In this document: in pieces, positions 4,821 through 51,219 of the stretch | Layout of the letters: each line of letters begins with the position of its first letter | Position numbering within the stretch: the stretch's first letter is position 1 | Assembly: GCA_947629035.1 (NCBI GenBank) | Contig: CANRCE010000002.1 | Coordinates: 251 to 64,250, forward strand | Source: an uncultured Bacilli bacterium | Lineage (GTDB): Bacteria; Bacillota_I; Bacilli_A; RF39; UBA660 | Direction: 5' to 3' | DNA length: 64,000 nt | Position numbers and translations under genes: made by a program | Notes under the pieces: generated by a model | Told to the model about the DNA's origin: nothing | Database searches by the model: none | Seen by the model: only the letters and a program-made list of their open reading frames with translations

Positions 4821-6287
4821 TTGAAAAAAATAAAAACAATATTAAAAATAATTACTTTAATTATAACCACTTGTAGTATTACCAAAGTATCTGCTAGTAG
4901 TTTATCATCGGAAGCTATTGCTGGAGTTTATGGAATATTTATATCTGATGATTATTATTCATTTCCTATGGACATTTATAGAATGGATGGTAGAGTAGCT
5001 TATTGTATTCAACCAGGAACTCAAATTATAACAAGTAATTATCTTGCTACTAGTGATACTAGTTTAAGTGGATTATCTCAAGATAAAATTGATTATATTA
5101 AATTAGTAGCTTACTATGGCTATGATTATTATAACCATCAAAATTATAATTATTATATTGCTGCTCAAGAATTAATTTGGGAAAAAGTAGTTGATGGTGG
5201 AGAGGGTTATTATACAACAACTCAAGAGGTTCATGGAGAAAAAATTGATATTGAAAAATATAAAGAAGAAATTTTAAATTTAATTGCCAAACATAATGAA
5301 ATTCCCTCTTTTGCCGATACAAAAGTTGTAAAACTTAAAAATAAAGATGTAACTATTGAAGATAAAAATAATGTCTTATCTTCATTTGAACTTACTGAAA
5401 GTGGTGCATCAATTAACAAAAATAAACTTACAATAACTAGTGATACAATAAATAAAATTTCTTTAGAAAAAAAGTTATATACTGATAAAGTTTTTTTGTT
5501 ATATTACTATTCTACATCACAAAAAATGATATCAGCAGGAATTATTGATGCTCCTAAAGTAGATGTTTATGTTGAACATACTGGAGCTAATCTTGAAGTT
5601 AAAAAGTTTGGGGAAGAGTTTGATATAACATTAAATGATTATCATAAAATACCTCTAGATGGTGTTACTTTTAATTTATATGCTAAAAGTGATATTGTTA
5701 CTAGTGATAATGTTATTCATTATAAAAGTGGTGATTTAATTGATACTTTTACAACTAATAAAGAGGGAAAAATTAATACTATTTTGTATTTTGGAGAGTA
5801 TTGTCTTGTTGAAAAATATGATAATTTTAATTATAAAATAGAGGATAATCCCTATTGTTTTACTTTAAGTCATGATGATAGTATTTCAATATATAACTAT
5901 CTTAAAAAGGGAAGTTTAAAGGTCATAAAAAAAGATGATAAAACTGGTAAAACATTACAAGGCACTACTATTGGTTTATATACTATGGATTCTAAATTAA
6001 TAGCAAGTAAAACGACAGATAATACAGGTTCAATTATATTTTCTGATATACCACTTGGTAGTTATTATATTAAAGAACTAGAAGCTAGTGAGGGTTATTT
6101 TTTAAATAATGATAAGATTTATGTTGAAGTTTTAGAGGATGATAAATTGGTAACAATTGATATTACTAATGAAAAAATAGTAAAAGTTCCGAAAACTGCT
6201 GATAATGAATATGATATTTCTAAATATATGTTTTTAGTTAATATAATTGGATTGTTTATGTTAAGATATGGTTTTAAGAAAATCTAA
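4821..6287 (+). CDS. cell-wall-anchored surface protein with Cna-B/SpaA-type (prealbumin-like) domains and a C-terminal sorting signal
   Basis: Signal peptide MKKIKTILKIITLIITTCSITKVSASS. Cna-B-like domain GSLKVIKKDDKTGKTLQGTTIGLYTMD...GSIIFSDIPLGSYYIKELEASEGY. C-terminus VPKTAD + hydrophobic YMFLVNIIGLFML + basic tail RYGFKKI, which is a sortase sorting-signal architecture. Host-like NNT codon usage. Confidence 0.7.
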   Translation: MKKIKTILKIITLIITTCSITKVSASSLSSEAIAGVYGIFISDDYYSFPMDIYRMDGRVAYCIQPGTQIITSNYLATSDTSLSGLSQDKIDYIKLVAYYGYDYYNHQNYNYYIAAQELIWEKVVDGGEGYYTTTQEVHGEKIDIEKYKEEILNLIAKHNEIPSFADTKVVKLKNKDVTIEDKNNVLSSFELTESGASINKNKLTITSDTINKISLEKKLYTDKVFLLYYYSTSQKMISAGIIDAPKVDVYVEHTGANLEVKKFGEEFDITLNDYHKIPLDGVTFNLYAKSDIVTSDNVIHYKSGDLIDTFTTNKEGKINTILYFGEYCLVEKYDNFNYKIEDNPYCFTLSHDDSISIYNYLKKGSLKVIKKDDKTGKTLQGTTIGLYTMDSKLIASKTTDNTGSIIFSDIPLGSYYIKELEASEGYFLNNDKIYVEVLEDDKLVTIDITNEKIVKVPKTADNEYDISKYMFLVNIIGLFMLRYGFKKI

Positions 6288-6792
6288 AATAATATTTATA
6301 GGTTTAATTTTTATAATCATATCATTAGGATATTATCGTAATTATTTTATTAATTATTTTGATAATATAAAAGATAAAATAAATGTCGATAATTATCTTT
6401 TAGGAAAAAATAATAAATTATTAGCAGTTATCTATATTCCTAAAATTAATTTAAAAAAAGGAATATATTTTTTAGAAACTAAAGAAAATAATGTAAATAA
6501 AAATATTGAACTCTTAAGAGGATCTACTTCTAGTGATATTCTTTTAGCAGCTCATTCAGGAAATGGAAAAAAAGGTTATTTTAATAATATATTTAATTTA
6601 AAATATAATGATTTTATCTATTTATATCATGAAAATAAAAAATATATTTACGAAGTAATAGATTTTTATAAAGTAGAAAAAGATGGATATTTAAAATTAG
6701 ATTATGTTAATTATAAAAGATTAGTTTTAACAACATGTGATATTCTAGAGGAAAATAAGCAATATGTTGTTATAGCAAAATTGATAACATAA
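6268..6792 (+). CDS. sortase family transpeptidase (short, N-terminal membrane anchor)
   Basis: 174 aa. N-terminal TM, His in LLAAHSG, catalytic Cys in LVLTTCD (TLxTC motif). Overlaps the preceding substrate gene by 20 nt. The usual Arg about 10 residues after the Cys is not obvious (QYVVIAK). Confidence 0.65.
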   Translation: MVLRKSKIIFIGLIFIIISLGYYRNYFINYFDNIKDKINVDNYLLGKNNKLLAVIYIPKINLKKGIYFLETKENNVNKNIELLRGSTSSDILLAAHSGNGKKGYFNNIFNLKYNDFIYLYHENKKYIYEVIDFYKVEKDGYLKLDYVNYKRLVLTTCDILEENKQYVVIAKLIT

Positions 6793-6900
6793 TTTAATAA
6801 AAACTACTTGAAATGGAGATAAAAATATGATATATTAAAGGTGATAAATAGGTAAGGAGAAGTAGAAAAAATGGATAGAAATACAAACATTTGTCTAATA

Positions 6901-6908
6901 GGGGGGGG
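6901..6908. repeat. G8 homopolymeric tract in the intergenic region 126 nt upstream of the giant surface-protein gene
   Basis: ttgtctaataGGGGGGGGtataaaaagcc. A run of eight G in an otherwise roughly 28% GC context. It lies between a TTGTCT hexamer (6891-6896) and a TATAAA hexamer (6909-6914). Confidence 0.9.
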
Positions 6909-7033
6909 TATAAAAAGCCTTATAAAATAAGGGATTATACCGATTATAATATAAATATAAATAATAACTATAATGAAATATTTAGGAAACTAAATAATTT
7001 TCGTTATAGTTTTTTTAATGTAGGTGATAGCCT

Positions 7034-10000
7034 ATGTTAAAAAATATAAGAAGAACATATATCCTAGCAGTAGCAGTAATAGGACTATTAGCAGTAGCAC
7101 TATATTCAACATATGCAATGTTTACAGCAAATGTTGATTTAGCAGATGTAAGTATAACCCCAAATGTAACATTAGATGCTAAATTACTAGAATATGAACA
7201 ATTAACCATACCAAAAAATGAATATAAAATAATAGAGTTAAATGTAGCAAATGATTATAATAGTGAATTACATTATGGAGCATGGTATGAAATGATAAAT
7301 CCAACAACTACAGATAATGTAATAATAGCCAAATATAGTGAAAGTCAAGATGAAACATCAGGAACAATAGGACAAAATATTACGAAGAAAATAAAAGTAA
7401 TCATCTATAATAAAAATAATGAAGATATAACTCTAAATATAGGAATAGGAAGTAATATCGATGAAAACTTAAATTTAGGAGATAATAGACATATAATACA
7501 AGATACTTATACCGTAGTAAAAGCAAATATAACACCAGATAATACAGGAACATTAAATACAAAAGAGCAAGTAATACTTCAAAATAGTGATGCAATATTT
7601 AATGTAACACCAAATGGAAATTATGAAATAAGTAATGTATCATGTACAGGAGACCAAACAGCAAGCTATGTAGGTAATACTGTAACTGTAGCAAATGTAG
7701 CAAAAACTACAACTTGTACGATAACGATGAAAGAGAAAACATATACTGTAAATGCAAGTTTAAATCCATCAGAAGCAGGTCAATTAGATAAAAATACCCA
7801 AACAGTAACAACTGGTCAAACAGCAACCTTTAAAGTAACACCAACTGATGGTTATGAAATAAATAATGTAACATGTACTGACAATAATAATGCAACTTTT
7901 AATGGAGCAACCGTAACAGTTTCTAATGTCACAAGTGATACCACTTGTATTATTAATATGAAATTAAAAACCTATACCGTCTATATAAGTGCAGATAATT
8001 CAACTATAAAAGATGGAACAAAAGTAAATAATATAGTAAAAAATGGTAGTTTTGAAGACGGAAATGCTAATTGGACATTAGAAAATGCAAGTGTAGTAAC
8101 AGCACAACATTCTCATGGTAGTAAATCATTACAATTAAATGGTGGAACGACACCAGTAACGCCTATGAGTAAGCAAACATTATCACCAAAATCACCAGTC
8201 TTAAATCATAAATATTATGGAAGATTAATGTTTTTATCATCAGCTGATTTCTCAACTAGTGATAATAGATATGAATGGTATAGTGGAGATGGACCTAATA
8301 AAAATTTAGTATTTGCTAATAAATCAGATAAAACAACAAGTTGGAAACTATTATCAAATATTCAATGGGTAACGGAAAATACATATTTATCAAACGACTG
8401 GTATATAAGAAATTTCCAAGTAAATGCAAATAGTAATTCATATGTCGATGAGTTAATGATAATAGATTTAACAGATAGTTTTGGAAGTGGAAATGAACCA
8501 AAAAAAGAATGGCTAGATAACATAATACCATATTTTGAAACATCAGGATCAGTATCTAGTAGTAATGTAGTACATGGAAATACAACAAAATTTACAATAA
8601 CACCAGATACAGGATATGAAATAGATAAATATAGTTGTACAAATGCAACTATAACTGCAAGTGAAAATGAATATACAATATCAGGAATTAATCAAAATAC
8701 AAAATGTAATGTAACAACCAAGAAAAAAACCTATAACATAACAACAACAATAACACCATCAAATGGTACAACAGTATCACCATCATCAACAACAGTTAAA
8801 CATGGTGAGACATCAGAAATATTTAAAATAACTCCTAAAACAGGATATCAAGTAAGTTTTGTTAATTGTACAAATGGAGAGGCTAAATTATCAGGAACTA
8901 ACTTTACTGTCGAAAATGTAACGGGTAATTCAGAATGTACTATAACTATGGAACTAAAAAGTTATAAGGTAAGTGCAAGTGTAAGTTCAAATGGAAGTGT
9001 AACTCCATCATCAAAAACCGTAACACATGGATCTAATGCCACTTTTACTGTAAATCCAAATGATGACTATGAAATAGATAAAGTAACATGCTCAAATAAT
9101 CAAAATGCAAGTTTTTCTGGAAATACTGTAACCGTAAAATCAGTTACTAATGAAACATCATGCACTATTACAATGAAGAAAAAAACTTATACTGTAACAG
9201 CTCAAATAAGACCACAAGATGCAGCAACAGTATCTGGAGGTAATACTAAAACAGTAAGTCATGGTTTAAGTACAAGTTTTAGTATAAGTCCTAATACAGA
9301 CTATCAATACTTATCAGTAAGTGGAACAGGCTGTAGTATTTCAGGAACGACACTTAATGTATCAAGTGTAACAGAAGAAGTAACCTGTGTAGTATCATAT
9401 TTTAAATCACTTACTCAAGATATAACAAATTTAAACTATACAGGGGATGTTCAAATATATAAAGTAACAGAAGCCGGATATTATAGATTAGAAGTATGGG
9501 GAGCTGAAGGAGGATATCGATCAAGTAGTATCTATTCAGGAAAAGGAGGATACTCTTACGGAACAGTATATTTAGAAAAAGATACGATGTTATATATTTA
9601 CGCTGGAGGTTCAGGAAATAGTGGAACATGTAGTAATAGTATTTGTACAGGAGGATTTAATGGAGGAGGATATCGACACACCTATAAAGGTGGAGGAGGA
9701 GCATCCGATGTCAGAATAGGCTCTGATGATTATTACTCAAGAGTAATTGTCGCTGGAGGTGGAGGTTCAGATGGAGCATCTACTAAAAAGGGACAATATG
9801 GTGGTGGAGAAACTGGAGGAAGTAGTAGTGAAGACTATAGTTCAGTGCGAGGTTCTGGTGGAAAAGGAGGAACACAAACTTACTCTGGATATTCAACATC
9901 TTATACAATTGAAACCCAAACAACTACAGGGCTTAATAGTAGTAAATTAGAAAATTATGCCGGAGGATTTGGTTTTGGAGGTGGAGGTGTTAGTTATAGA

Positions 10001-11419
10001 AATGGCTATGGAGGCGCTGGTGGAGGTGGCTGGTATGGTGGAAGTGGAAACGTACCAGATAGCTCTAGTGATAACGATAGAGGAGGAGGTGGAGGTTCAG
10101 GCTTTGTCTACACCAGTACAACCCCATCAACAACACTACCATCAGGCTATAAATTAACAGATAAATATCAACTTACTAGTGCAGCTACCATCGGAGGATA
10201 TAAAAGTTTTAATTCTCCATCGGGTTCACAAGAAACAGGACATACAGGAAATGGATATGTAAGAATAACCAAAGATAAATTAACAGTAAATGTATCAGTA
10301 TCACCTAGTGATAGTGCAAACATAACTGGAGATAGTAGTAAAATTACACATCATGGAGAAAATATAGAATTTATTATAACCCCCAAAGAAGGTTATAAAT
10401 ATTTTATGGCAGAAGGATGTACTTATGATGAAAATACAAATACTGCTACAGTATCAAATGTAACACAAGATACTACCTGTATAGTGAGATTCAGAGGAAA
10501 AACTAATATAGATACAATATTTGATAAATGTCAGACTGGAGGATGGAAAGATAATACAGAACCTGGTTTATACGAAGATGGAAATGGAAATTGTAGATAT
10601 GTTGGAGCTGGTCCTAATAATTGGATAAAATTTAATGATGATATGTATCAGATAATTGGAATTTTTAATGAAAATACACACGGTAAAAAAGGAGAGTACT
10701 TACTAAAATTAATTTATCCAGATATACTTATAGCAGCAGCATATGGTGCACATAATATAGATGAAACGAGTGGAACTTACTCAAACTATAGTAGTGATTG
10801 GACAGGATCAAAGCACAGTAGTCCTTCAAGCGCATACCTACTTTTAAATGAATATTTTTATAATGCGGCAGATTCATCAACAAAATATGGGGCATGTGAA
10901 AATTGGACATATTTTAATAATGGGAATGCTGATAAATCAAAAAATTGCGATACAATGGTAGTCTATGGAATAAAAGAAAAATATAGAAATTATATAGAAA
11001 ACACAGCAATATGGTATTTGTATGGACTTTCTTCTACTTATTTCACAAAAAAAGATGTATATCAATGCGAAAGAGGAGGATACAATTGTACAGCACCATA
11101 TGAAGCAACTACCCAAGCACCAATAGGTCTTATATATCTAACAGATTATCTATATGCAAGTGGTTATAGCTCAAATACTGCCAGTTTAACAAATTCTGCA
11201 TTTTACTATGAAAATTGGCTATACCAAGGAAGCGTGTGGGTATTATCACCATATAATGTCAATAGTGCAAGTATAACAAGCTTCGATAATAGCTATTTAT
11301 TTTCATCAAATTATCCATATTTTGGAAATGGTCTTCTCCCCACTTTCTATCTAAAATCTGATGTTAAAGTAACTGGAGGAGATGGAACTTTTAATAATCC
11401 ATATACTATCAGTTATTGA
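7034..11419 (+). CDS. giant (1461 aa) secreted multidomain protein: SipW-cognate-type signal peptide, about 7 InlB-B-like Ig repeats, CBM4_9-like module, glycine-rich (PF12810-like) domain, family-specific C-terminal domain
   Basis: N-terminus RRTYILAVAVIGLLAVALYSTYAMFTANVDL resembles TasA/camelysin-type signal peptides. Repeats of about 75 aa share 'TP.DGYEI..V.C....A.F.G.TVTV.NVT.DTTC.I.M..KTYTV'. Residues about 335-520 carry NGSFEDGNANWTLENASVVTAQHSHGSKSLQLNGG (CBM4_9 pattern). Residues about 805-1075 are Gly-rich (YRLEVWGAEGG...GKGGYSYGTVYLEKDTMLYIYAGGSG...VRIGSDDYYSRVIVAGGGG). The last roughly 300 aa are shared with three paralogs. RBS aGGTGAtagcctATG. Codons end in A (gca, gta, aca, ata, gga), unlike host genes. 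Confidence 0.8.
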   Translation: MLKNIRRTYILAVAVIGLLAVALYSTYAMFTANVDLADVSITPNVTLDAKLLEYEQLTIPKNEYKIIELNVANDYNSELHYGAWYEMINPTTTDNVIIAKYSESQDETSGTIGQNITKKIKVIIYNKNNEDITLNIGIGSNIDENLNLGDNRHIIQDTYTVVKANITPDNTGTLNTKEQVILQNSDAIFNVTPNGNYEISNVSCTGDQTASYVGNTVTVANVAKTTTCTITMKEKTYTVNASLNPSEAGQLDKNTQTVTTGQTATFKVTPTDGYEINNVTCTDNNNATFNGATVTVSNVTSDTTCIINMKLKTYTVYISADNSTIKDGTKVNNIVKNGSFEDGNANWTLENASVVTAQHSHGSKSLQLNGGTTPVTPMSKQTLSPKSPVLNHKYYGRLMFLSSADFSTSDNRYEWYSGDGPNKNLVFANKSDKTTSWKLLSNIQWVTENTYLSNDWYIRNFQVNANSNSYVDELMIIDLTDSFGSGNEPKKEWLDNIIPYFETSGSVSSSNVVHGNTTKFTITPDTGYEIDKYSCTNATITASENEYTISGINQNTKCNVTTKKKTYNITTTITPSNGTTVSPSSTTVKHGETSEIFKITPKTGYQVSFVNCTNGEAKLSGTNFTVENVTGNSECTITMELKSYKVSASVSSNGSVTPSSKTVTHGSNATFTVNPNDDYEIDKVTCSNNQNASFSGNTVTVKSVTNETSCTITMKKKTYTVTAQIRPQDAATVSGGNTKTVSHGLSTSFSISPNTDYQYLSVSGTGCSISGTTLNVSSVTEEVTCVVSYFKSLTQDITNLNYTGDVQIYKVTEAGYYRLEVWGAEGGYRSSSIYSGKGGYSYGTVYLEKDTMLYIYAGGSGNSGTCSNSICTGGFNGGGYRHTYKGGGGASDVRIGSDDYYSRVIVAGGGGSDGASTKKGQYGGGETGGSSSEDYSSVRGSGGKGGTQTYSGYSTSYTIETQTTTGLNSSKLENYAGGFGFGGGGVSYRNGYGGAGGGGWYGGSGNVPDSSSDNDRGGGGGSGFVYTSTTPSTTLPSGYKLTDKYQLTSAATIGGYKSFNSPSGSQETGHTGNGYVRITKDKLTVNVSVSPSDSANITGDSSKITHHGENIEFIITPKEGYKYFMAEGCTYDENTNTATVSNVTQDTTCIVRFRGKTNIDTIFDKCQTGGWKDNTEPGLYEDGNGNCRYVGAGPNNWIKFNDDMYQIIGIFNENTHGKKGEYLLKLIYPDILIAAAYGAHNIDETSGTYSNYSSDWTGSKHSSPSSAYLLLNEYFYNAADSSTKYGACENWTYFNNGNADKSKNCDTMVVYGIKEKYRNYIENTAIWYLYGLSSTYFTKKDVYQCERGGYNCTAPYEATTQAPIGLIYLTDYLYASGYSSNTASLTNSAFYYENWLYQGSVWVLSPYNVNSASITSFDNSYLFSSNYPYFGNGLLPTFYLKSDVKVTGGDGTFNNPYTISY
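9444..10270 (+). other. glycine-rich domain-coding segment inside the giant ORF (PF12810-like); source of spurious alternative-frame ORFs
   Basis: GGN/GGA codon runs. Translated motifs LEVWGAEGG, LYIYAGGSG, ASDVRIG, RVIVAGGGGS, GGAGGGGWYGGSG match the bacterial glycine-rich-protein family pattern. ORF-track entries 9747..9950 and 9957..10157 are off-frame artefacts of this region. Confidence 0.6.
10619..10649 (+). repeat. 31-nt block (aattggataaaatttaatgatgatatgtatc) identical in three paralogs (also 11770..11800 and 25797..25827)
   Basis: Identical at nucleotide level inside the conserved C-terminal domain of the giant ORF, the 338-aa paralog and the 486-aa paralog. Encodes NWIKFNDDMY. Confidence 0.85.
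11338..11376 (+). repeat. 39-nt block near the 3' end of the giant ORF, 37/39 identical to 12468..12506 in the next paralog
   Basis: cccactttctatctaaaatctgatgttaaagtaactgg versus cccactttctatctaaaacctgacgttaaagtaactgg. Encodes PTFYLK(S/P)DVKVTGG. Confidence 0.8.
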
Positions 11420-11532
11420 TTTAGTTTAAATAGTGTTTACTTTTAAAGAGAAGATTAGTATCTATTGTTAATGCAATAATTATAAATTATATACAATAAA
11501 AAGTATTAAAAATAGAAAAGAGGTATTAGAAT

Positions 11533-12549
11533 ATGAATAAGAAATCGGTGATAGGTTCTAGTATGATATTAACAACAATAATAGGAATAGTATCAATATA
11601 TATTGGGAATACATATGCAGTAGAAAATGTTAGCGAAAGTGGCTCCTATAACACTTTAGTGGATACAATAATAGGTTTAGCTCCTGAAGAAGTTGGATGG
11701 GAGGCAGGAGCAGAAGGACTATACCAAGATGAAAATGGAGATTATCGATATATTGGAGGTAGTCCAGATAATTGGATAAAATTTAATGATGATATGTATC
11801 GAATAATTGGAATATTTCAAGAAAACACTCATGGTTTAGAAGGCTATCGAGTAAAATTGATTAGAGTAAAACCAATTGGAGCATATGCATATGGAGTTTA
11901 TCTCAAAAATAATTCTACTCGATATCATGGTGTCGACTTGGTTGGAATAAATGATGGTGATCAAAGCACTCCATTAAATTCGTATATATTACTAAATGAA
12001 TATTTTTATAATGCAACAGATGTATCAGAAGATTATGGAAAATGTGAAGATTGGGCATACGTTACAACTAGTAAGACAAAAAATTGTGATACAATAATAG
12101 GATATGGAATAAAAAATGAATACAGAAGTTACATAGAAAACACAGCGACATGGCACTATAATTGGTGTTATACTGATTTAAGTAAACAAGCTTTATATCA
12201 ATGTGAAAGACTTAGTGTTAATATAGATTATAGTACTCAAATGCCAGTTGGAGTAATGTATGCTTCTGATTACGCATACGCAAGTGGATATTTAGCAAGT
12301 TCAGATGCTGTTAATCAAGCGCTACGGGCAGGATCTAATTGGCTTTATATTGGATATGAATGGACAATAACACCAAATTGCTGGTTCCAAACTCTTTTTG
12401 TTAACCCTGGTGGAATGATAAGTTCATGTGATTTTAATTTAGGTTCAGAACATTCTATGCCAATACGTCCCACTTTCTATCTAAAACCTGACGTTAAAGT
12501 AACTGGTGGTACAGGGGCATATGATGATCCATATACTATTAGTATGTAA
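11533..12549 (+). CDS. secreted paralog (338 aa): signal peptide + family C-terminal domain only
   Basis: Signal MNKKSVIGSSMILTTIIGIVSIYIGNTYA|VE. Remainder aligns with the C-terminal 300 aa of the giant ORF (GLYQDENGDYRYIGGSPDNWIKFNDDMYRIIGIF, NTHG, YGKCEDWAY, NCD, QCER, YASGY, NWL, EWTITP, RPTFYLKPDVKVTGG). A-ending codon bias like the giant ORF. Confidence 0.8.
   Translation: MNKKSVIGSSMILTTIIGIVSIYIGNTYAVENVSESGSYNTLVDTIIGLAPEEVGWEAGAEGLYQDENGDYRYIGGSPDNWIKFNDDMYRIIGIFQENTHGLEGYRVKLIRVKPIGAYAYGVYLKNNSTRYHGVDLVGINDGDQSTPLNSYILLNEYFYNATDVSEDYGKCEDWAYVTTSKTKNCDTIIGYGIKNEYRSYIENTATWHYNWCYTDLSKQALYQCERLSVNIDYSTQMPVGVMYASDYAYASGYLASSDAVNQALRAGSNWLYIGYEWTITPNCWFQTLFVNPGGMISSCDFNLGSEHSMPIRPTFYLKPDVKVTGGTGAYDDPYTISM
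11761..11801 (+). repeat. 41-nt block identical to 25788..25828 in the 486-aa paralog
   Basis: agtccagataattggataaaatttaatgatgatatgtatcg is present in both genes. Confidence 0.8.
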
Positions 12550-12573
12550 TAGATATTTAGAATAGATTATTAA

Positions 12574-12625
12574 AAAAGCCTATTAACAAAGTGATTTTAA
12601 AATTTGTTTTGTTAATGGCTTTTTA
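12574..12625. terminator. bidirectional hairpin terminator between the paralog gene (+) and the acyltransferase gene (-)
   Basis: aaaagcctattaacaaa ... tttgttaatggcttttt forms an inverted repeat flanked by A-run and T-run. Confidence 0.5.
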
Positions 12626-12640
12626 ATATTTATTTATTTG

Positions 12641-13675
12641 TTATTTATTATTTTTTTTCTTTATTAATTTGGTTATTATGATGCCTAGGATTAATGATGA
12701 TATACTGACTAAAATATATAGTAGTAGGTTATTGTTTATAAGTAATTCTTTTTTATTGAATAGGCCAAATATAAATCGATATACAACGATAAAGAATGGG
12801 TGTATTATATAGATTATTAATGTTACTTTTTGATAGTTAAATTTTAGATTTTTATGAAAGTCTTTTAGGTAATTAAATAGAAAATACATAAGTGGTGGTA
12901 AGAAGATATACATAGAATCATGTCTTTGTAAATTAAAGTGTTTAAGTATTAATCCTTCGATTATCATTGGTATTAATAGGATAAATATATAGATTATACT
13001 AGTTTTTTTGTCTTCATGTTTTGCTATATAGCCTCCTAGGACTAGGAATATTGGTACATATAGGAAACCATTTTTGGTATAATTAAAAAATAGAAAGATA
13101 AAGTCATAAAAATAATTAATTATTGTTTTATTAATAAGGTAGTAATAGCTGTCTCCGAATAGGGCTATTATATATAATATTATACTTATTATAAAGGTGG
13201 TTTTAAATTTTAATTTTTTATTTAAAAAATATACTAATATTATTCCTATAATAACGTTGGGAAAATACCATAAATGATAAAATAGTCCATTAAATAAGAA
13301 ATCTTTGATAATGGTAAGAATGCTATTTTCTATAAAATAATGGTTGTATATTAGTATGGGTATATATATTATAGTGGCTATAATATATATTTTAAATAGT
13401 TTTATTATGCTTTTTTTAAATGTTTTAAAATCATTTTTATATAGGAAGAAACCTGTTTTCATTATGAAAAATGGAACTCCTACACGGGCAATAATTCTTG
13501 TAAGAATAAAGTCTAAATTTAAATTTATTGTTTCAAGTGGTGATATGTGGTTTGCCATTGATAAAAAGGCTGCAATTAAACCAAATATTGCAAGTTGTGA
13601 ATAAAATTTTTTTTCTTCAATCATAAGTGTACCTCCATCTATAACAATTTTAACAAATAATGAAGAATATAACAA
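12641..13675 (-). CDS. acyltransferase family 3 (OatA-like) integral membrane protein
   Basis: 344 aa, about 10 TM segments. ARVGVPFFIMKTGFFLY resembles the V(D/P)xFFxxSGF motif of acyltransferase_3. HLWYFP motif. Confidence 0.5.
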   Translation of the reverse strand: MLYSSLFVKIVIDGGTLMIEEKKFYSQLAIFGLIAAFLSMANHISPLETINLNLDFILTRIIARVGVPFFIMKTGFFLYKNDFKTFKKSIIKLFKIYIIATIIYIPILIYNHYFIENSILTIIKDFLFNGLFYHLWYFPNVIIGIILVYFLNKKLKFKTTFIISIILYIIALFGDSYYYLINKTIINYFYDFIFLFFNYTKNGFLYVPIFLVLGGYIAKHEDKKTSIIYIFILLIPMIIEGLILKHFNLQRHDSMYIFLPPLMYFLFNYLKDFHKNLKFNYQKVTLIIYIIHPFFIVVYRFIFGLFNKKELLINNNLLLYILVSISSLILGIIITKLIKKKNNK

Positions 13676-13762
13676 TATGTTATTTATAAAATAGTTTTTT
13701 TGTTATTGTAAATGCTAAAAATTTATTTGCTTTTGTAAGTTATATGTGATATAATTTTTATT

Positions 13763-16135
13763 ATGGAGAATAAGGGTGATGTTATGGCTAATGTGTCTAA
13801 TTATTATAAAACAAGTATAGAAAATTGTATAGCTCATAAAGAATGTATGGTAATAGGTAGAAAGTATCGTTTTACTGTTTTAACTGATAGACTTATTAGA
13901 TTACAATATTCACCAAGTGGTATGTTTGAAGATCGCCCAACTTCTAGAGTAATATTTCGTAATTTTGAAAGACCTATATTTACTGTAGAGGAGAGTGCTA
14001 CTTTAATTCAAATAAATACCAAATATTTTACTTTAAATTATGTTAAAGATAGATCTTTTAAAGGGGGAATTTTAACTCCGGCTTCGACTTTAAAAGTAAA
14101 TTTAAAAAATAGTGATAGAGAATGGTATTATAATCATCCAGAAGCTCGTAATTTTGGGACAATTAATTATTCTTTGGATGATTTTAATGGTAATTTAAAA
14201 TTAGATAAAGGTCTATATTCTACAGATGGTTTTTGTGTTATAGATGATTCTGATAGTTTAGTATTAAATGATGCTTTTGAATTTGTAAAAAGAGATCATA
14301 AAGAGATGGATTTATATTTATTTATGTATCGAAGAGATTTTAGTTTATGTCTACAGGATTATTATATGTTAACGGGTTATCCTAGTTTAATACCTAGATA
14401 TGCTTTGGGTAATTGGTGGTATAAGAATGAAAAATATACAAATAATGATATTTATGAAGTAATTGATAATTTTAATAAAAATAAAATACCTTTAAAGGTA
14501 TTGGTTTTAGGTGATTTTTGGCATGATAATTTGACACCTTATATTTTTGATAATACGGTGATTAATGCTGGTGAATTATTAAATTATTTAAATTCTAGAA
14601 ATATTAAATTAGCACTAACAATAAATCCTAGTTTAAAAGTTGATAGTAAAAGTAAATATTATAATAATTTTAGTTCTTTGTTGGAAAATAATAGTTTTGT
14701 TCCTTTTAGTAATAGTTCAATAAATGTTTATTATAATATGATATTAAAGCCTTTATTTGATAGTGGAATTAGTTTAATTAATATTGATTATAATAATCCT
14801 AAAGATAGATTAGGATTATGGCAGTTTAATAATTTACATGTATCTATGCAAGAACAAAAAGGAATAAGGGGTCTTATTTTATCCCGAAATAGTAAAATAG
14901 CTCAACATCGTTATCCGATTGTTTTTAGTGGTAAGACAAGAGTAAGTTGGAATACATTAAATGCTTTACCTAGATATAATTTATCAGCTTCAAATATGGG
15001 AATATCTTGGGTAGCACATGCGATTGGAGGATACTATAAGGGTATTGAGCAAGAAGAGTTATATTTAAGATATATTGAACTTGCTACTTTTTCTCCTATC
15101 TTTTTGTTGGCTAGTGAAAGGGGTAAATATTATAAAAGAGAACCTTGGAAATGGAATGATAAAGTTTTAGAAATAACAAGAGAATATATGCAATTAAGAC
15201 AGAGATTAATTCCTTATATTTATAATGAAGCATATATTTATCATTTGACAGGAGCTCCATTAATTCAAGCTTTTTATTATCAATATCCTAAAATATATGA
15301 TGAACCTTATTATAAAAATCAATATTTCTTTGGAAGATATATGTTTGTAGCGCCGATTACTAAAAAGAAAAATGTTGTTATGAATAGAGTAGTTCAAAGG
15401 TTGTTTGTACCTGATGGTACTTGGTTTGATTTTAAATCTGGTTTGAAATATCCTGGTGGTAAATATTACATGAATTTTTATAAAGATAATGATTATCCTG
15501 TTTTTTGTAAAGCTGGTTCTATTATTCCTCTTGCAATGGATACTTTGGATATTCCAAAGACTATTGAACTTATAATTTTTCCTTTAGATAATAATAGTTA
15601 TGATTTGTATGAGGATGATGGTATTACTAATAGATATACTAATAAAGAGTATTTAATTACTAATTATGAATATAATTATATAAAAGATAATTATACTTTA
15701 AAGATAAGTAAAAAAGAGGGTATTAATTTAATAGATAAACGAAATTATAAAATAAGATTTAAAAATACCAAAAATGTAAGTAATGTAAAAGCTTTAGTAA
15801 ATGGTATAGCAAATCCTGCTAATTGTTATTATGATAATACTGATTTAATTATTGAATTATTAGATATTGATATTAATGCTACTGTAGATATTAATATAAT
15901 GGGTTCTGATATTGAGGTTAGTACTTCTAGATTAATTACTAATGATATAAAAGATGTTATTTATGATTTAGAAATTGAGACAGTTTTAAAAGAAAAAATT
16001 GATGATATATTATTTAGTGATATGTCTATTAAGAAAAAAAGAATTGCTATTAGAAAATTAAAAAAGCAAAAATTAGAACCTAGATTTATTAAGGCTTTTC
16101 TTAATTTGTTAGATTTTATGAATGAAGAAAAATAA
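13763..16135 (+). CDS. glycoside hydrolase family 31-like protein (alpha-glucosidase/alpha-xylosidase fold), possibly non-hydrolytic
   Basis: 790 aa, no signal peptide. GH31 signature-2 region present (VAHAIGGYYKGIEQEELYLRYIELATFSPIFLLASE matches GADIGGF...RW.Q.GAFSPF.R.H). Nucleophile region reads LGDFWHDN. The acid/base WTGD region reads SWNT, so there is no Asp. Confidence 0.6.
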   Translation: MENKGDVMANVSNYYKTSIENCIAHKECMVIGRKYRFTVLTDRLIRLQYSPSGMFEDRPTSRVIFRNFERPIFTVEESATLIQINTKYFTLNYVKDRSFKGGILTPASTLKVNLKNSDREWYYNHPEARNFGTINYSLDDFNGNLKLDKGLYSTDGFCVIDDSDSLVLNDAFEFVKRDHKEMDLYLFMYRRDFSLCLQDYYMLTGYPSLIPRYALGNWWYKNEKYTNNDIYEVIDNFNKNKIPLKVLVLGDFWHDNLTPYIFDNTVINAGELLNYLNSRNIKLALTINPSLKVDSKSKYYNNFSSLLENNSFVPFSNSSINVYYNMILKPLFDSGISLINIDYNNPKDRLGLWQFNNLHVSMQEQKGIRGLILSRNSKIAQHRYPIVFSGKTRVSWNTLNALPRYNLSASNMGISWVAHAIGGYYKGIEQEELYLRYIELATFSPIFLLASERGKYYKREPWKWNDKVLEITREYMQLRQRLIPYIYNEAYIYHLTGAPLIQAFYYQYPKIYDEPYYKNQYFFGRYMFVAPITKKKNVVMNRVVQRLFVPDGTWFDFKSGLKYPGGKYYMNFYKDNDYPVFCKAGSIIPLAMDTLDIPKTIELIIFPLDNNSYDLYEDDGITNRYTNKEYLITNYEYNYIKDNYTLKISKKEGINLIDKRNYKIRFKNTKNVSNVKALVNGIANPANCYYDNTDLIIELLDIDINATVDINIMGSDIEVSTSRLITNDIKDVIYDLEIETVLKEKIDDILFSDMSIKKKRIAIRKLKKQKLEPRFIKAFLNLLDFMNEEK

Positions 16136-25154: not shown

Positions 25155-26615
25155 ATGATTGATAAAATAAAAGTAATTTTAGCAATTTGTATAAGTACTT
25201 TCTTATTAGGAATTGGAATGACTTATGCTTGGTATACTTGGCAATCAGATAGTAACACTAACATTTCTTTTAAAATAATGAGTATGGCTGATGTAAGTTT
25301 TGCTACAGGAAATGATATTAATGTCGATGATTTAGCTCCTGTTTTAGACTATAAAGATGGAAAAATGACATCATTTTCTATAAATAATAAAAAAGAACAA
25401 ACCTTTACTGGTATGGTTAATTTAGAAATAACAACGATAGATGAAAATTTAAGAGTTGAAGATTTTAAATATGTTTTATTAAGCTCCAATGATAATAATA
25501 GTTTTACAGAAATAGCCAATGGTAATTTTAAAGATCAAGGACCTCAAACTATTACAATTAAAGAAATAGAAGTAAATCCAGGTATTACGTATTATCAATT
25601 TATAATTTATATCGATGGTAATATGGAAAATAATATTAATATGATGAATAAGCAATTTGTAGCTAAACTTATGGTTGAAGTTAAGGGAGTAAGTGATATA
25701 TTAGATTCTTGTGCTGATGAAGAGTGGGTATCTGGCGCTGAAGGCTTATATAAAGATGGAAATGGAAATTGTCGATATATCGGTGCAAGTCCAGATAATT
25801 GGATAAAATTTAATGATGATATGTATCGTATAATTGGTATTTTTGATGGTAATACTCATAAAAAAGAGCAAGAGAATTTATTAAAACTAATATATCCAAG
25901 TGCTTTTATTTCTAGTTCTTATGGAATATATAATACTACTAATGATAGTGGTACTTATTCTAATTATAGTAATAGTTTTAAGAATGATACTCAAGCTAGT
26001 CCATCAAATGCTTATGTTTTATTAAATGAATATTTTTATAATAAAACTAATACGTCAGGCACATATGGTGATTGTAATAATTGGACATATTTTCGAAATA
26101 GTGATGGAAAACAAGTAGGAAGCTGTGATAAAATGTTAGCCTATGGTATAAAAAGTGAATATCAAGATTATATTGAAAGTAATGTAACTTGGTATTTATA
26201 TGGAAATGCAGATAATACTATTAAAAGACAAGAGATGTATTTGTGTGAGAGAGGATTAAATGGTTGTACTAGTGCAAATGGTGGAGCGTCTAGTGAAAGT
26301 ATTATAGCTCCAATTGGATTAATGTACCCATCAGATTATTCATATGCTAGTGGTAAGTATTCAATAAGTGAAGATCCAAGATTATCTGAAAAAGATTTAG
26401 GTATTGAAAATTGGCTATTTACAGGTTATGAGTGGATTATAACACCATCAAGTAGTGATGCTAAAAAAGTTTTTCAAATAACGGATCAAGGTTTAGTTGA
26501 TATAGAGAGTGCATATCACTCACTTGTCTTACGTCCTGTATTTTATTTAAAATCAGATGTAAAAATAATAAATGGAAGTGGATCTTATAATGATCCTTAT
26601 GAAGTAAGTTTATAA
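25155..26615 (+). CDS. secreted paralog (486 aa): SipW-cognate-type signal peptide + roughly 150-aa N-terminal domain + family C-terminal domain
   Basis: N-terminus KVILAICISTFLLGIGMTYAWYTWQSDSN resembles TasA/camelysin signal peptides. The C-terminal 300 aa align with the other three paralogs (GLYKDGNGNCRYIGASPDNWIKFNDDMYRIIGIF, NTH, YGDCNNWTYF, SCD, LCERG, YASG, ENWL, EWIITP, RPVFYLKSDVKI). Host-like T-ending codons. Confidence 0.75.
   Translation: MIDKIKVILAICISTFLLGIGMTYAWYTWQSDSNTNISFKIMSMADVSFATGNDINVDDLAPVLDYKDGKMTSFSINNKKEQTFTGMVNLEITTIDENLRVEDFKYVLLSSNDNNSFTEIANGNFKDQGPQTITIKEIEVNPGITYYQFIIYIDGNMENNINMMNKQFVAKLMVEVKGVSDILDSCADEEWVSGAEGLYKDGNGNCRYIGASPDNWIKFNDDMYRIIGIFDGNTHKKEQENLLKLIYPSAFISSSYGIYNTTNDSGTYSNYSNSFKNDTQASPSNAYVLLNEYFYNKTNTSGTYGDCNNWTYFRNSDGKQVGSCDKMLAYGIKSEYQDYIESNVTWYLYGNADNTIKRQEMYLCERGLNGCTSANGGASSESIIAPIGLMYPSDYSYASGKYSISEDPRLSEKDLGIENWLFTGYEWIITPSSSDAKKVFQITDQGLVDIESAYHSLVLRPVFYLKSDVKIINGSGSYNDPYEVSL
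25788..25828 (+). repeat. 41-nt block identical to 11761..11801
   Basis: agtccagataattggataaaatttaatgatgatatgtatcg. Confidence 0.8.
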
Positions 26616-26639
26616 GATAAAGAAAAGAGGTGTTAACCT

Positions 26640-27692
26640 TTGCAAAAGAAATTGATAATAAATTTTAGTTTAATATTAATAGTAATTACTATGGCATCAG
26701 TATATATAGGAAATACTTATGCTCATGCTGATGAATCATCCCAAGCAGCAACTACTTTATTAACAGAGGAGATTAAGAATAAAAGCCAAGGCCAAGGTTG
26801 GTCTTCGGGTAATGAAGGATTATATCAGGATGAAAATGGTGACTATCGATATGTCGGAGCAAATCCTAATAATTGGGTAATATTTAATGATGATAGATAT
26901 CAAATAATTGGTATGTTTAATAAAAATACCCATGGATTGGATGGCTATCGAGTAAAATTAATAAGAGCAAAACCAATCGGGGCTTATGCTTGGGGAGTAT
27001 ATAATGATAGCAATACTAGTGGTACTTATTCTAATTATAGTGCTAATTGGACTGGAAAAGGTCAAAGTACGCCAGCTAATTTATATGTTTTATTAAATGA
27101 ATATTTTTATAATAAAAAAGATACTTCAGATACATATGGTAATTGTAATGATTGGACATATTTTTCATCCAATTTAAGAAAAACCCAAAATTGTGATGTT
27201 ATAGTAGACTATGGTATAAAAAGTGAATATCAAAATTATATTGAAAGTGAGGCAACCTGGTATTTATATGGCATTTTAAGTACTAATTTAGAAGTACAAA
27301 GGCGAGATATGTACGAGTGTGAAAGAGGATCGGGAGATTGTACTAGTGCAAATAGTGGAGCATCTGATACAAGTATCACTGCGCCAATTGGACTTATGTA
27401 TCCTACTGATTATCTATATGCAACTAATAATTATGCTGATAGTAATAATGCTCATAAATTAGTCGAAAACAATTATGGTATTTCCAATTGGTTATATATG
27501 GGTTATGAGTGGACTATAACTCCAACTACTGATGAGCAAATTGCTCTTCGAGTTGAGTATAATAGTAGTATTAATAAAAATTATACTTGTTTTGCTAATC
27601 TTGTTCGTCCAACTTTTTATTTAAAGTCTGATGTTTATGTAAAAAGTGGTGATGGGTCATATAATAATCCTTATGTCTTGACACTTTCGTAA
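26640..27692 (+). CDS. secreted paralog (350 aa): signal peptide + family C-terminal domain
   Basis: TTG start with RBS aaaGAGGTG. Signal ...ITMASVYIGNTYA|HADE. Domain GLYQDENGDYRYVGANPNNWVIFNDDRYQIIGMF, NTHG, YGNCNDWTYF, NCD, ECERG, YAT, NWL, EWTITP, RPTFYLKSDVYV. Confidence 0.75.
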   Translation: MQKKLIINFSLILIVITMASVYIGNTYAHADESSQAATTLLTEEIKNKSQGQGWSSGNEGLYQDENGDYRYVGANPNNWVIFNDDRYQIIGMFNKNTHGLDGYRVKLIRAKPIGAYAWGVYNDSNTSGTYSNYSANWTGKGQSTPANLYVLLNEYFYNKKDTSDTYGNCNDWTYFSSNLRKTQNCDVIVDYGIKSEYQNYIESEATWYLYGILSTNLEVQRRDMYECERGSGDCTSANSGASDTSITAPIGLMYPTDYLYATNNYADSNNAHKLVENNYGISNWLYMGYEWTITPTTDEQIALRVEYNSSINKNYTCFANLVRPTFYLKSDVYVKSGDGSYNNPYVLTLS

Positions 27693-41400: not shown

Positions 41401-41544
41401 GATAATAATTATTTGAAGCAATTAAATGGATATAAAAATTATATAAGTAAGATAGTTAATAAACCTATAAATATTTATTTATATTCAATTTTACAAGATA
41501 AGATTGTTAATTTAAATTTAAAAGAAGAAATGCTAATAAGATAA
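38467..41544 (+). CDS. addA: ATP-dependent helicase/nuclease subunit A (UvrD-like helicase + C-terminal RecB nuclease)
   Basis: 1025 aa. Walker A AGAGSGKT, helicase motifs (ILIDEYQDTN, VGDIKQAIYRFRNA, TIHKSKGLE, VALTRAR). C-terminal nuclease GNDIHESFERFDF...HGIIDLMLEYDDHIDIIDYK. Confidence 0.85.
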   Translation: MIFMNYTKEQLEAINKDNTNIIVSAGAGSGKTAVLTQRVIRKLYEHTHINELLILTFTNKAASEMKDKIRKAILKEEKLKDELDLLDNAYITTFDSYALSIVKKYHYVLGLKRNIKIGDTSLLELKKQEFLEKIFEDYYNKQDPLFLKLVDNFCIKDDKLLKRRILDLNKKLDMLSDKQQYLKEYDAFKNIDNDILDYINYLKEKIKMIENYTNELKYYVDSSYYDKIYNSIKRLLISNNYDEIKKNCNLKLPNLPKNSSEEAKNIKSIIKDLIDNIVSLTNYSDILEIKNELYNTKDNLKILIKILIELDDEIKNYKNNLGIYEFNDIALMAIKLVKEQEEIAKEIKNSFKEILIDEYQDTNDLQEEFISYIANNNVYMVGDIKQAIYRFRNANPYLFKEKYDLYQDGKLGIKIDLNKNFRSRKEVLANINTIFNELMDDSYGNANYQKDHQMIYGNLAYDENKSKSQDSNMDILTYCSKEGYSNAEIEAFIIANDIKKKIENKYLIYDDKIREVSYRDFAILFADSTNYSLYKKVFEYMKIPLSIIKDERLLLKENVLKNIICLIECIYEKKYDDNFKLAFLSVARSFLCEIDDNDIFDMFLNNDFINNEIYLKCKKIASNIDNLSLIQILDLIVEEFNYYENLIKVGNIDNRLIEIDKLYDIANDLMEVGYNLKEFNDYLKQVNKFDYKIEYKINEKEEDTVKMLTIHKSKGLEYKICYFAGLDKKFNLQDIIPNILYDKKYGIIISSFSDSEKDTIYKKLVKDNYLKDEISEKIRLFYVALTRAREKIIMVINEEEKKVLDKSTFRSFKDMLDYVAIKIDKFKKNIDINTLGLTKDYQKQKKLAYYYDLKEVVRPEELDIKNTYEEEFTFSKKSNDLIDKETAHNLQVGNDIHESFERFDFKVQDFSILDKFSASKMQNFLKQKLLSNISKANIYQEYEFIYEQEDNIYHGIIDLMLEYDDHIDIIDYKLNDITDNNYLKQLNGYKNYISKIVNKPINIYLYSILQDKIVNLNLKEEMLIR

Positions 41545-48398: not shown

Positions 48399-48474
48399 TG
48401 CCCCATAGCCAAGTGGTAAGGCATCGGACTCTGACTCCGACATTTCGTTAGTTCGAATCTAACTGGGGCAACCA
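48399..48474 (+). tRNA. tRNA-Gln (anticodon CUG)
   Basis: 76 nt, hand-folded. Acceptor TGCCCCA/TGGGGCA, anticodon stem TCGGA/TCCGA with loop cuCUGac, T-loop TTCGAAT, 3' ACCA. Close to the Bacillus tRNA-Gln backbone but with C34. Confidence 0.8.
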
Positions 48475-51142: not shown

Positions 51143-51219
51143 TGGCCTGTTGGTGAAGTGGTTAACACGGTACCCTCTCAAGGTATTATTCACGGGTTCA
51201 AGTCCCGTACAGGCTACCA
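51143..51219 (+). tRNA. tRNA-Glu-like gene with an apparent 8-nt anticodon loop (cuCUCaaa)
   Basis: 77 nt. Acceptor GGCCTGT/ACAGGCT, T-arm ACGGG-TTCAAGT-CCCGT, 3' ACCA. The backbone aligns with Bacillus tRNA-Glu (GGCCCGTTGGTCAAGCGGTTAA...). The anticodon stem GTACC/GGTAT encloses CTCTCAAA (8 nt), one more than canonical; a possible anticodon is CUC. Confidence 0.55.

Follow-up and report, generated by a model that had tools for sequence, protein, structure and literature searches.

Class III genes of Escherichia coli and Bacillus subtilis have an accessory-type codon usage that is distinct from that of core genes. In a survey of 29 prokaryote families, codon usage was biased toward U at four-fold codons and toward C at two- to three-fold pyrimidine-ending codons, with optimisation greatest among ancestral core genes and genes of high expression, and smallest among accessory "singletons" (PMC7374057). 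In very low-GC genomes, singletons exceeded core genes in GC3 (PMC7374057). Codon-usage heterogeneity is itself already well described.

The locus reported here lies in a 64-kb stretch of a MAG contig (the whole of which we refer to as the window) and resembles such accessory genes in that the four-fold U preference of core genes is lost in its accessory genes, in that accessory GC3 equals or exceeds the core value, as in very low-GC genomes, and in that the atypical genes are clustered and have surface functions. It departs from them in a strong positive preference for A (0.74) beyond the intergenic level (0.51), the comparison being made against the window plus about 10 kb of probable same-species contigs rather than a whole genome. 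With classical genomic islands, the locus shares a contiguous atypical block with surface/adhesin-type genes, a break in synteny at one edge and hints of strain variation; unlike them, it has no integrase or transposase, tRNA, flanking repeats or similarity to phages or plasmids, its GC3 is not atypical, and no donor is identifiable. Recombining surface-protein families offer a further parallel: several paralogs per genome with a shared N-terminal leader region and C-terminal domain, mosaic identity between paralogs, a homopolymeric G8 tract upstream of the largest gene, and architectures that differ by gain or loss of repeat modules. Here, however, no sign of switching, silent cassettes or phase variation came to light, and the copies within the window are only about 50% identical. 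Finally, bacterial PF12810 proteins are matched strongly by the largest gene and two of its relatives, yet in this family the domain is joined with InlB-B-repeat-like modules and a C-terminal domain of about 290 aa. Our favoured account, to which we give about an even chance, is that the block 7034..13675 consists of accessory surface-protein genes from a recombining flexible pool, with accessory-type codon usage.

Gene content of the locus

The neighbourhood is otherwise made up of core genes (glyS, clpB and, further along, GH31, leuS, mreC and aspS), and its main features are collected in Table 1. The protein encoded by the giant ORF has a hydrophobic signal or anchor at its N-terminus, about 7-8 divergent InlB-B-repeat-like modules with a 231-nt period (PF18998, E 3e-7), an ALK/LTK-type glycine-rich domain at aa 813-1079 (nt 9470-10270; PF12810, E 6e-39, 134.8 bits against a gathering cut-off of 24.5), and, at the C-terminus, a conserved domain of about 290 aa (nt 10538-11416), which par1 matches at 47% identity. 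PDB sequence searches with the C-terminal domain returned nothing meaningful, and its AlphaFold2 model was poor (mean pLDDT 52). The G8 tract is enclosed by a 19-codon ORF (6871..6930). Downstream of par1, the palindromic hairpin folds with -17.4 and -15.0 kcal/mol on the two strands (z -5.5 and -5.0) and carries A- and T-runs, so that it looks like a predicted bidirectional intrinsic terminator; a consensus terminator scan made no call on it because it has few G-C pairs. Public data call the acyltransferase at 327 aa, i.e. 12641..13624.

Table 1 Features of the locus and its paralogs (window coordinates).
Feature	Coordinates	Strand	Description
Sortase gene			upstream neighbour of the giant ORF, 241-nt spacer between; four-fold A/(A+T) 0.51
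G8 homopolymer	6902..6909	+	within the sortase-giant ORF spacer, read from the sequence
Giant ORF	7034..11419	+	1461 aa, strongly A-ending codon usage
Short secreted paralog par1	11533..12549	+	338 aa, moderately A-ending
Palindromic hairpin	12573..12624	both	between the convergent par1 and acyltransferase genes
Acyl_transf_3 membrane acyltransferase	12641..13675	-	PF01757, E 2e-19
Two further C-terminal-domain paralogs	25155..27692	+	486 and 350 aa, host-like codon usage

Three adjacent ORFs share an A-ending codon bias

At four-fold sites, A/(A+T) of the giant ORF was 0.74, compared with 0.427±0.081 (range 0.24-0.62) in 48 other ORFs of the window, and its T fraction was 0.23 vs 0.53 in the pooled genes, i.e. 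the reduced four-fold U preference of the accessory-type class. The shift extended to GCA (71% vs 31% in the rest of the window), GTA (76% vs 43%), ATA (73% vs 35%), GGA (68% vs 43%), CCA (74% vs 40%), ACA (55% vs 33%), TCA (38% vs 21%) and CTA (21% vs 9%), with per-amino-acid chi-square p values between 1e-3 and 1e-13. It was even along the whole length of the gene and present for each following base and in each codon family, which excludes the neighbouring base and the codon family as its cause; amino-acid composition was likewise rejected. C-ending codons were also more frequent among two-fold pyrimidine-ending codons (0.116 vs about 0.05 in the host), and four-fold C/(C+G) was 0.72.

The membrane acyltransferase on the opposite strand was the most codon-atypical ORF of the window (excess divergence 0.56), with four-fold frequencies of A 0.585, T 0.245, C 0.17 and G 0, an A/(A+T) of 0.71, and 26% C-ending codons among its two-fold pyrimidine-ending codons. 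Par1 ranked third of 51 ORFs by excess divergence (0.18); its four-fold sites held 6 C and 9 G. An LLR classifier that scores each ORF for giant-type (positive) against host (negative) usage was negative in 48 of 48 host ORFs (mean -0.137, maximum -0.013) and positive in par1 (+0.03) and the acyltransferase (+0.20). The paralogs at 25-27 kb, which sit among core genes and served as an internal control, behaved as host genes, with A/(A+T) of 0.45-0.47, excess divergences of 0.003 and 0.051, and LLRs of -0.095 and -0.107. The sequence-only reading had described 7034..12549 as one stretch of NNA-ending codons amid NNT-biased genes. The A-ending usage is borne out, strongly so in the first of the two ORFs that make up this stretch and only moderately in the second (par1, A/(A+T) 0.60); the T bias holds for nearly all genes of the window, though not clearly for the sortase gene or the 25-27 kb paralogs.

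That reading had also noted a raised GC content. The giant ORF is indeed at 31.6% GC, but 31.0% is expected for the same protein in host codon usage, as its Thr/Ser/Gly-rich composition almost fully predicts the rise, and there is no signal at synonymous sites (GC3 0.118 vs 0.107 in the host; four-fold GC and overall GC3 also match). With GC3 unchanged and the excess predicted from the protein, GC content was discarded as a sign of foreign origin.

One way to arrive at such usage would be relaxed translational selection only, under which genes of weak expression would drift toward the mutational equilibrium and selection would keep core genes at U. Surveys do report that the four-fold U bias peaks in core genes and in those of high expression and is lowest in accessory ones (PMC7374057), and ORFs of the window that lack a Pfam match are on the whole slightly richer in A (0.54-0.62). 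However, intergenic DNA has an A/(A+T) of 0.51, so that the values of the giant ORF, and of the acyltransferase at 0.71, lie well above it and relaxed selection alone is not enough. The doubled C-ending frequency in the giant ORF is the opposite of AT drift, and addA, addB, radC and rarA, presumably native genes of low expression, are T-biased. We therefore regard this explanation as unlikely. Low expression as such was rejected as the cause on similar grounds, AddA/AddB and other non-housekeeping ORFs being host-like; an enolase gene at a second locus (L031, see below) stood at 0.49.

Edges of the atypical block

The three most deviant of the 51 ORFs are adjacent and form a single block. It had been proposed that the G8 tract and the hairpin delimit the island; both exist, and neither is a compositional boundary. 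At the downstream end, the most atypical ORF of all, the acyltransferase, lies past the hairpin. Synteny shared with relatives starts exactly at the right edge of the block: two contigs of the closest relatives found (L024 and L025) have GH31, a small ORF and leuS in common with the window and nothing upstream of GH31, although these relatives are distant (about 57% aa identity for GH31 and 77-80% for leuS) and delimit the right edge only. Contigs of the same species end or diverge at 5001, 6896 (two contigs) and 13763, the last being an alternative junction from a contig of 2.3x coverage (L027), and a third same-species contig reads through 6896 with the G8 tract. These strain-level breakpoints rest on contigs of 2-3x coverage and could be assembly artefacts. 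Missing giant-ORF fragments in other samples were dropped as an indication of strain-specific absence, the word-indexed search having missed even the self hit.

Since the source is a MAG contig, the block might be an assembly or binning chimera, i.e. DNA of another organism of the same metagenome joined in silico. Independent contigs spanning 7007-7034 or the giant ORF-par1 junction were not found, and two contigs stop at 6896, as would fit such a chimera. Against it, the window is matched at 100% identity over 12369-14119 by L026, an ENA contig of independent origin that runs from the 3′ end of par1 through the acyltransferase into the 5′ end of GH31; L028 contains the sortase gene and continues into the spacer, to within 27 nt of the start codon of the giant ORF. 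Four-fold GC and GC3 match the host, and paralogs of the same family lie among the core genes at 25-27 kb. We consider a chimera extremely improbable.

Tests for a mobile or imported island

Pfam and NCBIfam searches of the ORFs between 4.8 and 16 kb revealed no integrase, transposase, conjugation or phage genes. There is no tRNA target at the block, the only tRNAs of the window being at 48.4 and 51.1 kb, and searches for flanking direct or inverted repeats gave chance-level AT-rich matches only. No match was obtained by blastn of 6793-13762 against phages and plasmids, by tblastn against plasmids, or by an IMG/VR scan with the domain alignment. In a neighbour-joining tree of the C-terminal domain, the four copies of the window formed deep, roughly equidistant branches and were not nested within a foreign clade among those sampled. 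No close homolog in a foreign lineage was found that could serve as donor, and no homolog came closer than about 52-69% identity. The sequence-only reading had offered two alternatives, recently acquired DNA still unadapted to its host or a gene under different translational selection, and is supported in part. The idea that the DNA was recently acquired horizontally keeps the contiguous atypical block and the synteny break on its side, and has the lack of mobility genes and of a donor, together with host-like GC3, against it; the donor that a search among relatives had been expected to reveal did not appear.

The bias recurs in a protein family of uncultured Bacilli

Exact-protein look-ups for the giant ORF, par1, aspS, GH31, P0020 and P0288 returned no record, NCBIfam had no name for any family member, and the giant ORF and par1 were singletons in 90% clusters. 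The C-terminal domain is widespread (more than 5,000 representative homologs), while the giant-type architecture was found only in MAGs of uncultured Bacilli and in metagenome proteins; PF12810 is also strong in two relatives (P0020, E 1e-39, and the L004 protein, 2e-44). Identity to the best homologs is 41-69%, over parts only, with best matches at 52% (L004/L006), 41-46% (P0020) and, for the acyltransferase, 47-52%; its named homologs are from Clostridia (39-46% identical) and its closest ones reach 52%. The genes of the block are hence lineage-restricted, variable and not core, again as in the accessory-type class. In protein comparison, the closest paralog of the giant ORF, P0288, is 95% identical to its aa 1-80 and falls to 30-57% by aa 200-313, a drop that points to recombination-like mosaicism.

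A second locus, probably from the same species (L031/L032), carries a giant-like and a par1-like gene with A/(A+T) of 0.71 and 0.69, against 0.49-0.56 in the flanks. The LLR was positive for the par1-like gene of L032 (+0.07), for the P0022 gene (+0.11) and for family genes in L016, L022 and L025 (+0.06 to +0.11). In other genomes, family genes were more A-rich than their same-strand neighbours at 11 of 11 leading-strand loci (+0.01 to +0.48), with a value of 0.78 vs 0.31 in L016. The sequence-only reading had named a native gene class with the same A3 bias as the finding that would tell against import; this holds in part, the same A-ending usage occurring in family members at L031/L032 and in other genomes.

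These observations raise the possibility of a native gene-class effect, in which the secreted family, and perhaps other envelope genes, selectively favours or tolerates A-ending codons with no transfer involved; possible reasons include an adjustment to tRNAs with UNN anticodons, translation that is slow or conditional, or an mRNA that is A-rich and unstructured. An A/(A+T) above the intergenic level would also suggest a directional force and not mere relaxation. Yet the two paralogs that lie 13 kb away in the window, on the same strand, are host-like, the unrelated acyltransferase deviates likewise, and a neighbouring secreted TED-SpaA adhesin has host usage. Moreover, where strand asymmetry is strong in related genomes, members of the family fall below their lagging-strand neighbours in A (-0.04 to -0.34), and there is therefore no universal family-wide pull to A. 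A gene-class effect is accordingly a possible but doubtful explanation. A more elaborate variant, which we put forward as speculative and consider improbable, would make A-ending usage a selected trait shared by the giant-type and short-paralog subfamily and acting as a translational gate, possibly combined with G8 phase variation and paralog recombination, and varying the cell surface. The subfamily would occupy at least two loci per genome and recur in a number of related genomes, and the gate could operate, for example, through dependence on particular UNN-anticodon tRNAs or through deliberately slow translation that aids secretion and folding of the repeat and glycine-rich domains.

Strand asymmetry suggests yet another origin, whereby a recent inversion brought the giant ORF and its paralog to the leading strand after they had evolved on the lagging one. 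In related MAGs, strand asymmetry is very strong and lagging genes have A/(A+T) of 0.5-0.68 and C/(C+G) of 0.8-0.93; the giant ORF stands at 0.74 and 0.72, and the lagging strand is also where L004 and L006 carry its counterparts of 52% identity. In the present genome, however, pooled plus-strand and pooled minus-strand genes share the same four-fold A:T ratio, which rules out strand bias as the cause here and leaves no lagging-strand A signature to inherit. In addition, the acyltransferase, encoded on the opposite strand, is biased in the same way on its sense strand, par1 shows no enrichment in C, and no inverted repeats surround the segment. We hold such a relic to be very unlikely.

Discussion

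Under our favoured account of a recombining accessory pool, a cassette comprising a giant secreted glycine-rich-domain protein, a short paralog and an opposite-strand acyltransferase would have been inserted into, or reshuffled within, the otherwise core neighbourhood, and would vary between lineages and probably between strains. Its genes would be members of a multigene family that undergoes exchange, duplication and recombination in a flexible gene pool of related uncultured gut Bacilli. They lack the four-fold U preference of long-resident host genes and favour A-ending codons instead, ATA among them, with a slight rise in C-ending ones; the reason would be that they have been too briefly in their present chromosomal context to have acquired host usage, and the host-like paralogs at 25-27 kb would fit older residents. 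History is most likely the cause of the atypical usage, and we infer transfer, either horizontal or intragenomic, although a property of the gene class might just as well account for the recurrence of the bias in family members across several genomes. Viewed this way, the block shows the usual codon pattern of surface-protein genes that are variable and accessory, and does not prove a fresh import.

For annotation, the locus teaches that genuine and conspicuous codon-usage islands need not be mobile islands of the classical type, and that GC may rise through amino-acid composition alone. It draws attention to a variable surface-protein site in poorly known, uncultured low-GC gut Bacilli, and a mosaic family that pairs an ALK/LTK-type glycine-rich domain with a widespread C-terminal domain. 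Should the family turn out to be a surface repertoire that recombines and differs between strains, it would matter for the interaction of these bacteria with the host or with phages.

A-ending codon usage of the giant ORF

Among the codons of the giant ORF, those ending in A are foremost for Ile and throughout the four-fold families, with shares above those in the other ORFs for GCA (71% vs 31%), GTA (76% vs 43%), ATA (73% vs 35%), GGA (68% vs 43%), CCA (74% vs 40%), ACA (55% vs 33%) and TCA (38% vs 21%; chi-square p 1e-3 to 1e-13 per amino acid). Four-fold A/(A+T) amounted to 0.74, as compared to 0.427±0.081 (maximum 0.62) in the 48 other ORFs that define host usage, and the bias is even over all 1461 codons, non-repetitive ends included. 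These values bear out the sequence-only reading that this usage is unlike that of host genes. Effects of the next base (0.71-0.77 whichever base follows vs 0.33-0.47), of the codon family and of the replication strand (pooled plus genes A 0.377, T 0.533; minus genes A 0.361, T 0.544) were ruled out as its source; the related idea that the usage is a relic of a strand switch appears very unlikely.

The higher GC claimed for the island was likewise observed (31.6%, in a window of 25% GC), but as an amino-acid effect (Thr 12.7%, Ser 10.8%, Gly 10.1%): GC2 was 0.449 vs 0.27 in the host, GC3 hardly differed (0.118 vs 0.107), and re-encoding the giant protein with host codon frequencies predicted 31.0%.

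Extent of the block and its locus

When 51 ORFs were ranked by sampling-corrected divergence from leave-one-out pooled usage, the acyltransferase (0.56), the giant ORF (0.25) and its short paralog par1 (0.18) came out on top, with the others at ≤0.088. A log-likelihood classifier of giant against host usage put par1 (+0.03) and the acyltransferase (+0.20) on the positive side and 48/48 other ORFs on the negative (mean -0.137, maximum -0.013). Ranking and classifier together place the atypical block at 7034..13675, and its codon-usage contrast with the host is genuine. The downstream hairpin, previously taken as the island's limit, thus lies inside the block, the acyltransferase beyond it being the most atypical ORF of all; the hairpin is a predicted bidirectional terminator-like element between convergent genes.

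Features at and around the codon-atypical block
Feature	Position	Strand	Remarks
Thioester-domain/SpaA adhesin	4821..6287		
Sortase	6268..6792		
Spacer between sortase and giant ORF			241 nt; contains G8 tract 6902-6909
19-codon mini-ORF	6871-6941 region		encloses the G8 tract
Giant ORF	7034..11419	plus	1461 aa
par1	11533..12549	plus	338 aa; paralog of giant-ORF C-terminal domain
Palindromic hairpin	12573-12624		
Acyltransferase (Acyl_transf_3 membrane protein)	12641..13675	minus	
GH31 glycosidase	13763..16135		
Two further C-terminal-domain paralogs	25155..26615 and 26640..27692		47-51% identical
C-terminal domain copies	10538-11416, 11737-12546, 25713-26612, 26805-27689		motifs NWIKFNDD, LLNEYFYN, RPTFYLKSDV
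addB/addA-like nuclease-helicase pair	36157-41544		GC 18-20%
tRNA-Gln(CTG)	48399-48474		
tRNA-Glu(CTC)	51144-51219		

The window was drawn from a 67-kb NCBI contig and has uncultured gut "Bacilli" MAGs as relatives; the majority of its genes lie on the plus strand, GC skew is positive, and core genes (glyS, clpB, leuS, radC, mreC, aspS) surround the block. A small hairpin (-11.6 kcal/mol, z -2.7) comes after the mini-ORF in the spacer (MDRNTNICLIGGGIKSLIK*), which has GGTAAGGAG upstream; if the G8 tract changed in length, the mini-ORF would be frameshifted immediately upstream of the giant gene.

Proteins encoded by the block

In the giant protein, a hydrophobic leader precedes a series of seven or eight divergent InlB-B-repeat-like modules (PF18998; DNA period 231 nt, copies 64-82% identical), which are followed by a glycine-rich domain of the ALK/LTK type (PF12810, E 6e-39) and a C-terminal domain of ~290 aa. 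For the latter, a search at E≤1e-3 gave 5,344 representative homologs, and neither Pfam, NCBIfam nor the PDB sequences gave a match; the quality of its structure prediction was too low for use. It occurs alone, behind repeats or in multiple copies in one protein. The database protein P0020 (1400 aa) shares the architecture of the giant protein at 41-46% identity, and proteins of the metagenomic loci L004 and L006 (836 and 860 aa) are 52% identical to it across the glycine-rich and C-terminal parts, each gene being followed by a short paralog, as in the window.

A conserved TYAMFT or TYAWYT motif follows the hydrophobic stretch and closes the leaders at 7034-7130 and 25155-25250 and at the N-termini of the family proteins P0022 and P0288; matched by no model, it resembles SipW-type (TasA/camelysin-like) signal peptides. 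The acyltransferase matched, below cut-offs, membrane-domain models of VanT (membrane-bound serine racemase). Among its homologs, several carry a fused alanine-racemase domain (PF01168), and the named ones are Clostridia (Ruminococcus, Oscillospiraceae, Anaerocolumna).

A bias elsewhere in the family

On L031 and L032, metagenomic contigs with the same samples and coverage as same-species contigs, the gene for P0022 (560 aa, giant-like; A/(A+T) 0.71) and a par1-like gene after it (0.69) stand among neighbours at 0.49-0.56 (enolase, lipoprotein, Cse60-family small protein, flippase-like protein). In other genomes, the family member was higher in A at 11/11 loci with T-biased same-strand neighbours, as at L016 (0.78 vs 0.31), L022 (0.70 vs 0.41) and L025 (0.69 vs 0.50). 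The same A bias in a native gene class, which would have argued against acquisition, is thus found in part: these genomes have it, whereas the window paralogs at 25-27 kb show host-like usage. As lagging-strand members in MAGs with strong replication-strand asymmetry were, moreover, lower in A than their neighbours, there is no uniform pull of the family toward A. Class-specific selection for A-ending codons is possible, if somewhat doubtful; family members simply mismatch their surroundings, as expected for often moved or replaced genes.

The four-fold strand asymmetry was very strong in MAGs CAKOSA01 and CAAGHJ01 (L002, L004, L006, L007, L008, L013), with A/(A+T) of 0.18-0.27 and C/(C+G) of 0.05-0.2 in leading-strand genes and of 0.5-0.68 and 0.8-0.93 in lagging-strand genes, core proS and rnfCD among these.

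Relaxed selection and accessory-type usage

Relaxed selection alone is insufficient, since intergenic A/(A+T) is 0.51 as opposed to 0.74 in the giant ORF, presumably low-expression native genes (addA/addB, radC, rarA) stay T-biased, and the C-ending share in two-fold pyrimidine boxes exceeds the host's ~2-fold in the giant ORF and ~5-fold in the acyltransferase. We consider pure relaxation unlikely. The addB/addA-like pair, our low-expression native control, is very AT-rich, yet typical of the host in codon usage. The only two tRNA genes in the window are isoacceptors for G-ending codons; CAG and GAG are rare in the genome (7% and 15%).

A survey of 29 prokaryote families (PMC7374057) found, in all of them, a bias to U at four-fold codons and to C at pyrimidine-ending codons of two- to three-fold degeneracy. 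Optimisation of codon usage peaked in ancestral core genes and in genes of high expression, the least favoured codons residing in accessory "singleton" genes; in very low-GC genomes, GC3 is highest in singletons and declines toward core genes. The block resembles singletons in four-fold U bias and GC3, but differs in its higher C-ending share, against the C-bias part.

Variable surroundings and mosaic relatives

On two metagenome contigs of the closest relatives found (leuS 77-80%, GH31 56-57% aa identity), the order GH31, small ORF, leuS is kept and nothing upstream of GH31 is common with the window; synteny with them thus begins at the block's right edge. Contigs from other ENA samples carrying identical sortase or acyltransferase proteins have 2-3x coverage, so that any single breakpoint is weak evidence. 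L026 matched 12369-14119 at 100%; an assembly chimera as the source of the block is extremely unlikely. L027 matched 12518-13763 at 99.8% and diverged completely at the GH31 start codon, reflecting either a different strain's alternative junction or a chimera caused by low coverage; its positions 1-92 open a different divergent ORF (MQPRQNI...). L029 and L030 both terminate at 6896, 5 nt ahead of the G8 tract. L028 matched 5001-7007 at 99.65%, yet its adhesin N-terminus is unrelated: compared with window 4821-5000, L028:1-187 encodes an adhesin 99% identical from residue 54, with the first ~55 residues unrelated and the break just ahead of a YCIQPG motif.

P0288 (621 aa, from a 23.8 kb NCBI contig) consists of leader, two repeats and C-terminal domain. 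Compared over window 7034-7990 and 10260-11419, its identity to the giant protein is 95% at residues 1-80, 82% at 81-160, 30-57% by 200-313 and 45-72% in the C-terminal domain; over the same leader, P0022 is only ~50% identical. This mosaic suggests recombination between family members.

The synteny edge, the contig breakpoints and the mosaic paralog point to an accessory, variable block. Against a discrete, recent island, there was no integrase or transposase among annotated ORFs at the block, no tRNA near it and no flanking repeat, no match in phage, plasmid or IMG/VR records, and no close foreign homolog of its genes. A neighbour-joining tree built on the C-terminal domain puts the four window copies on deep, about equidistant branches outside the clades of other genomes. 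Our best reading, at about even odds, is that the block forms a surface-protein cassette that is accessory and recombining, its codon usage being of the accessory type. Codon heterogeneity of this kind is well known; the mosaic multigene family and the unnamed, widespread C-terminal domain add modest extra interest.
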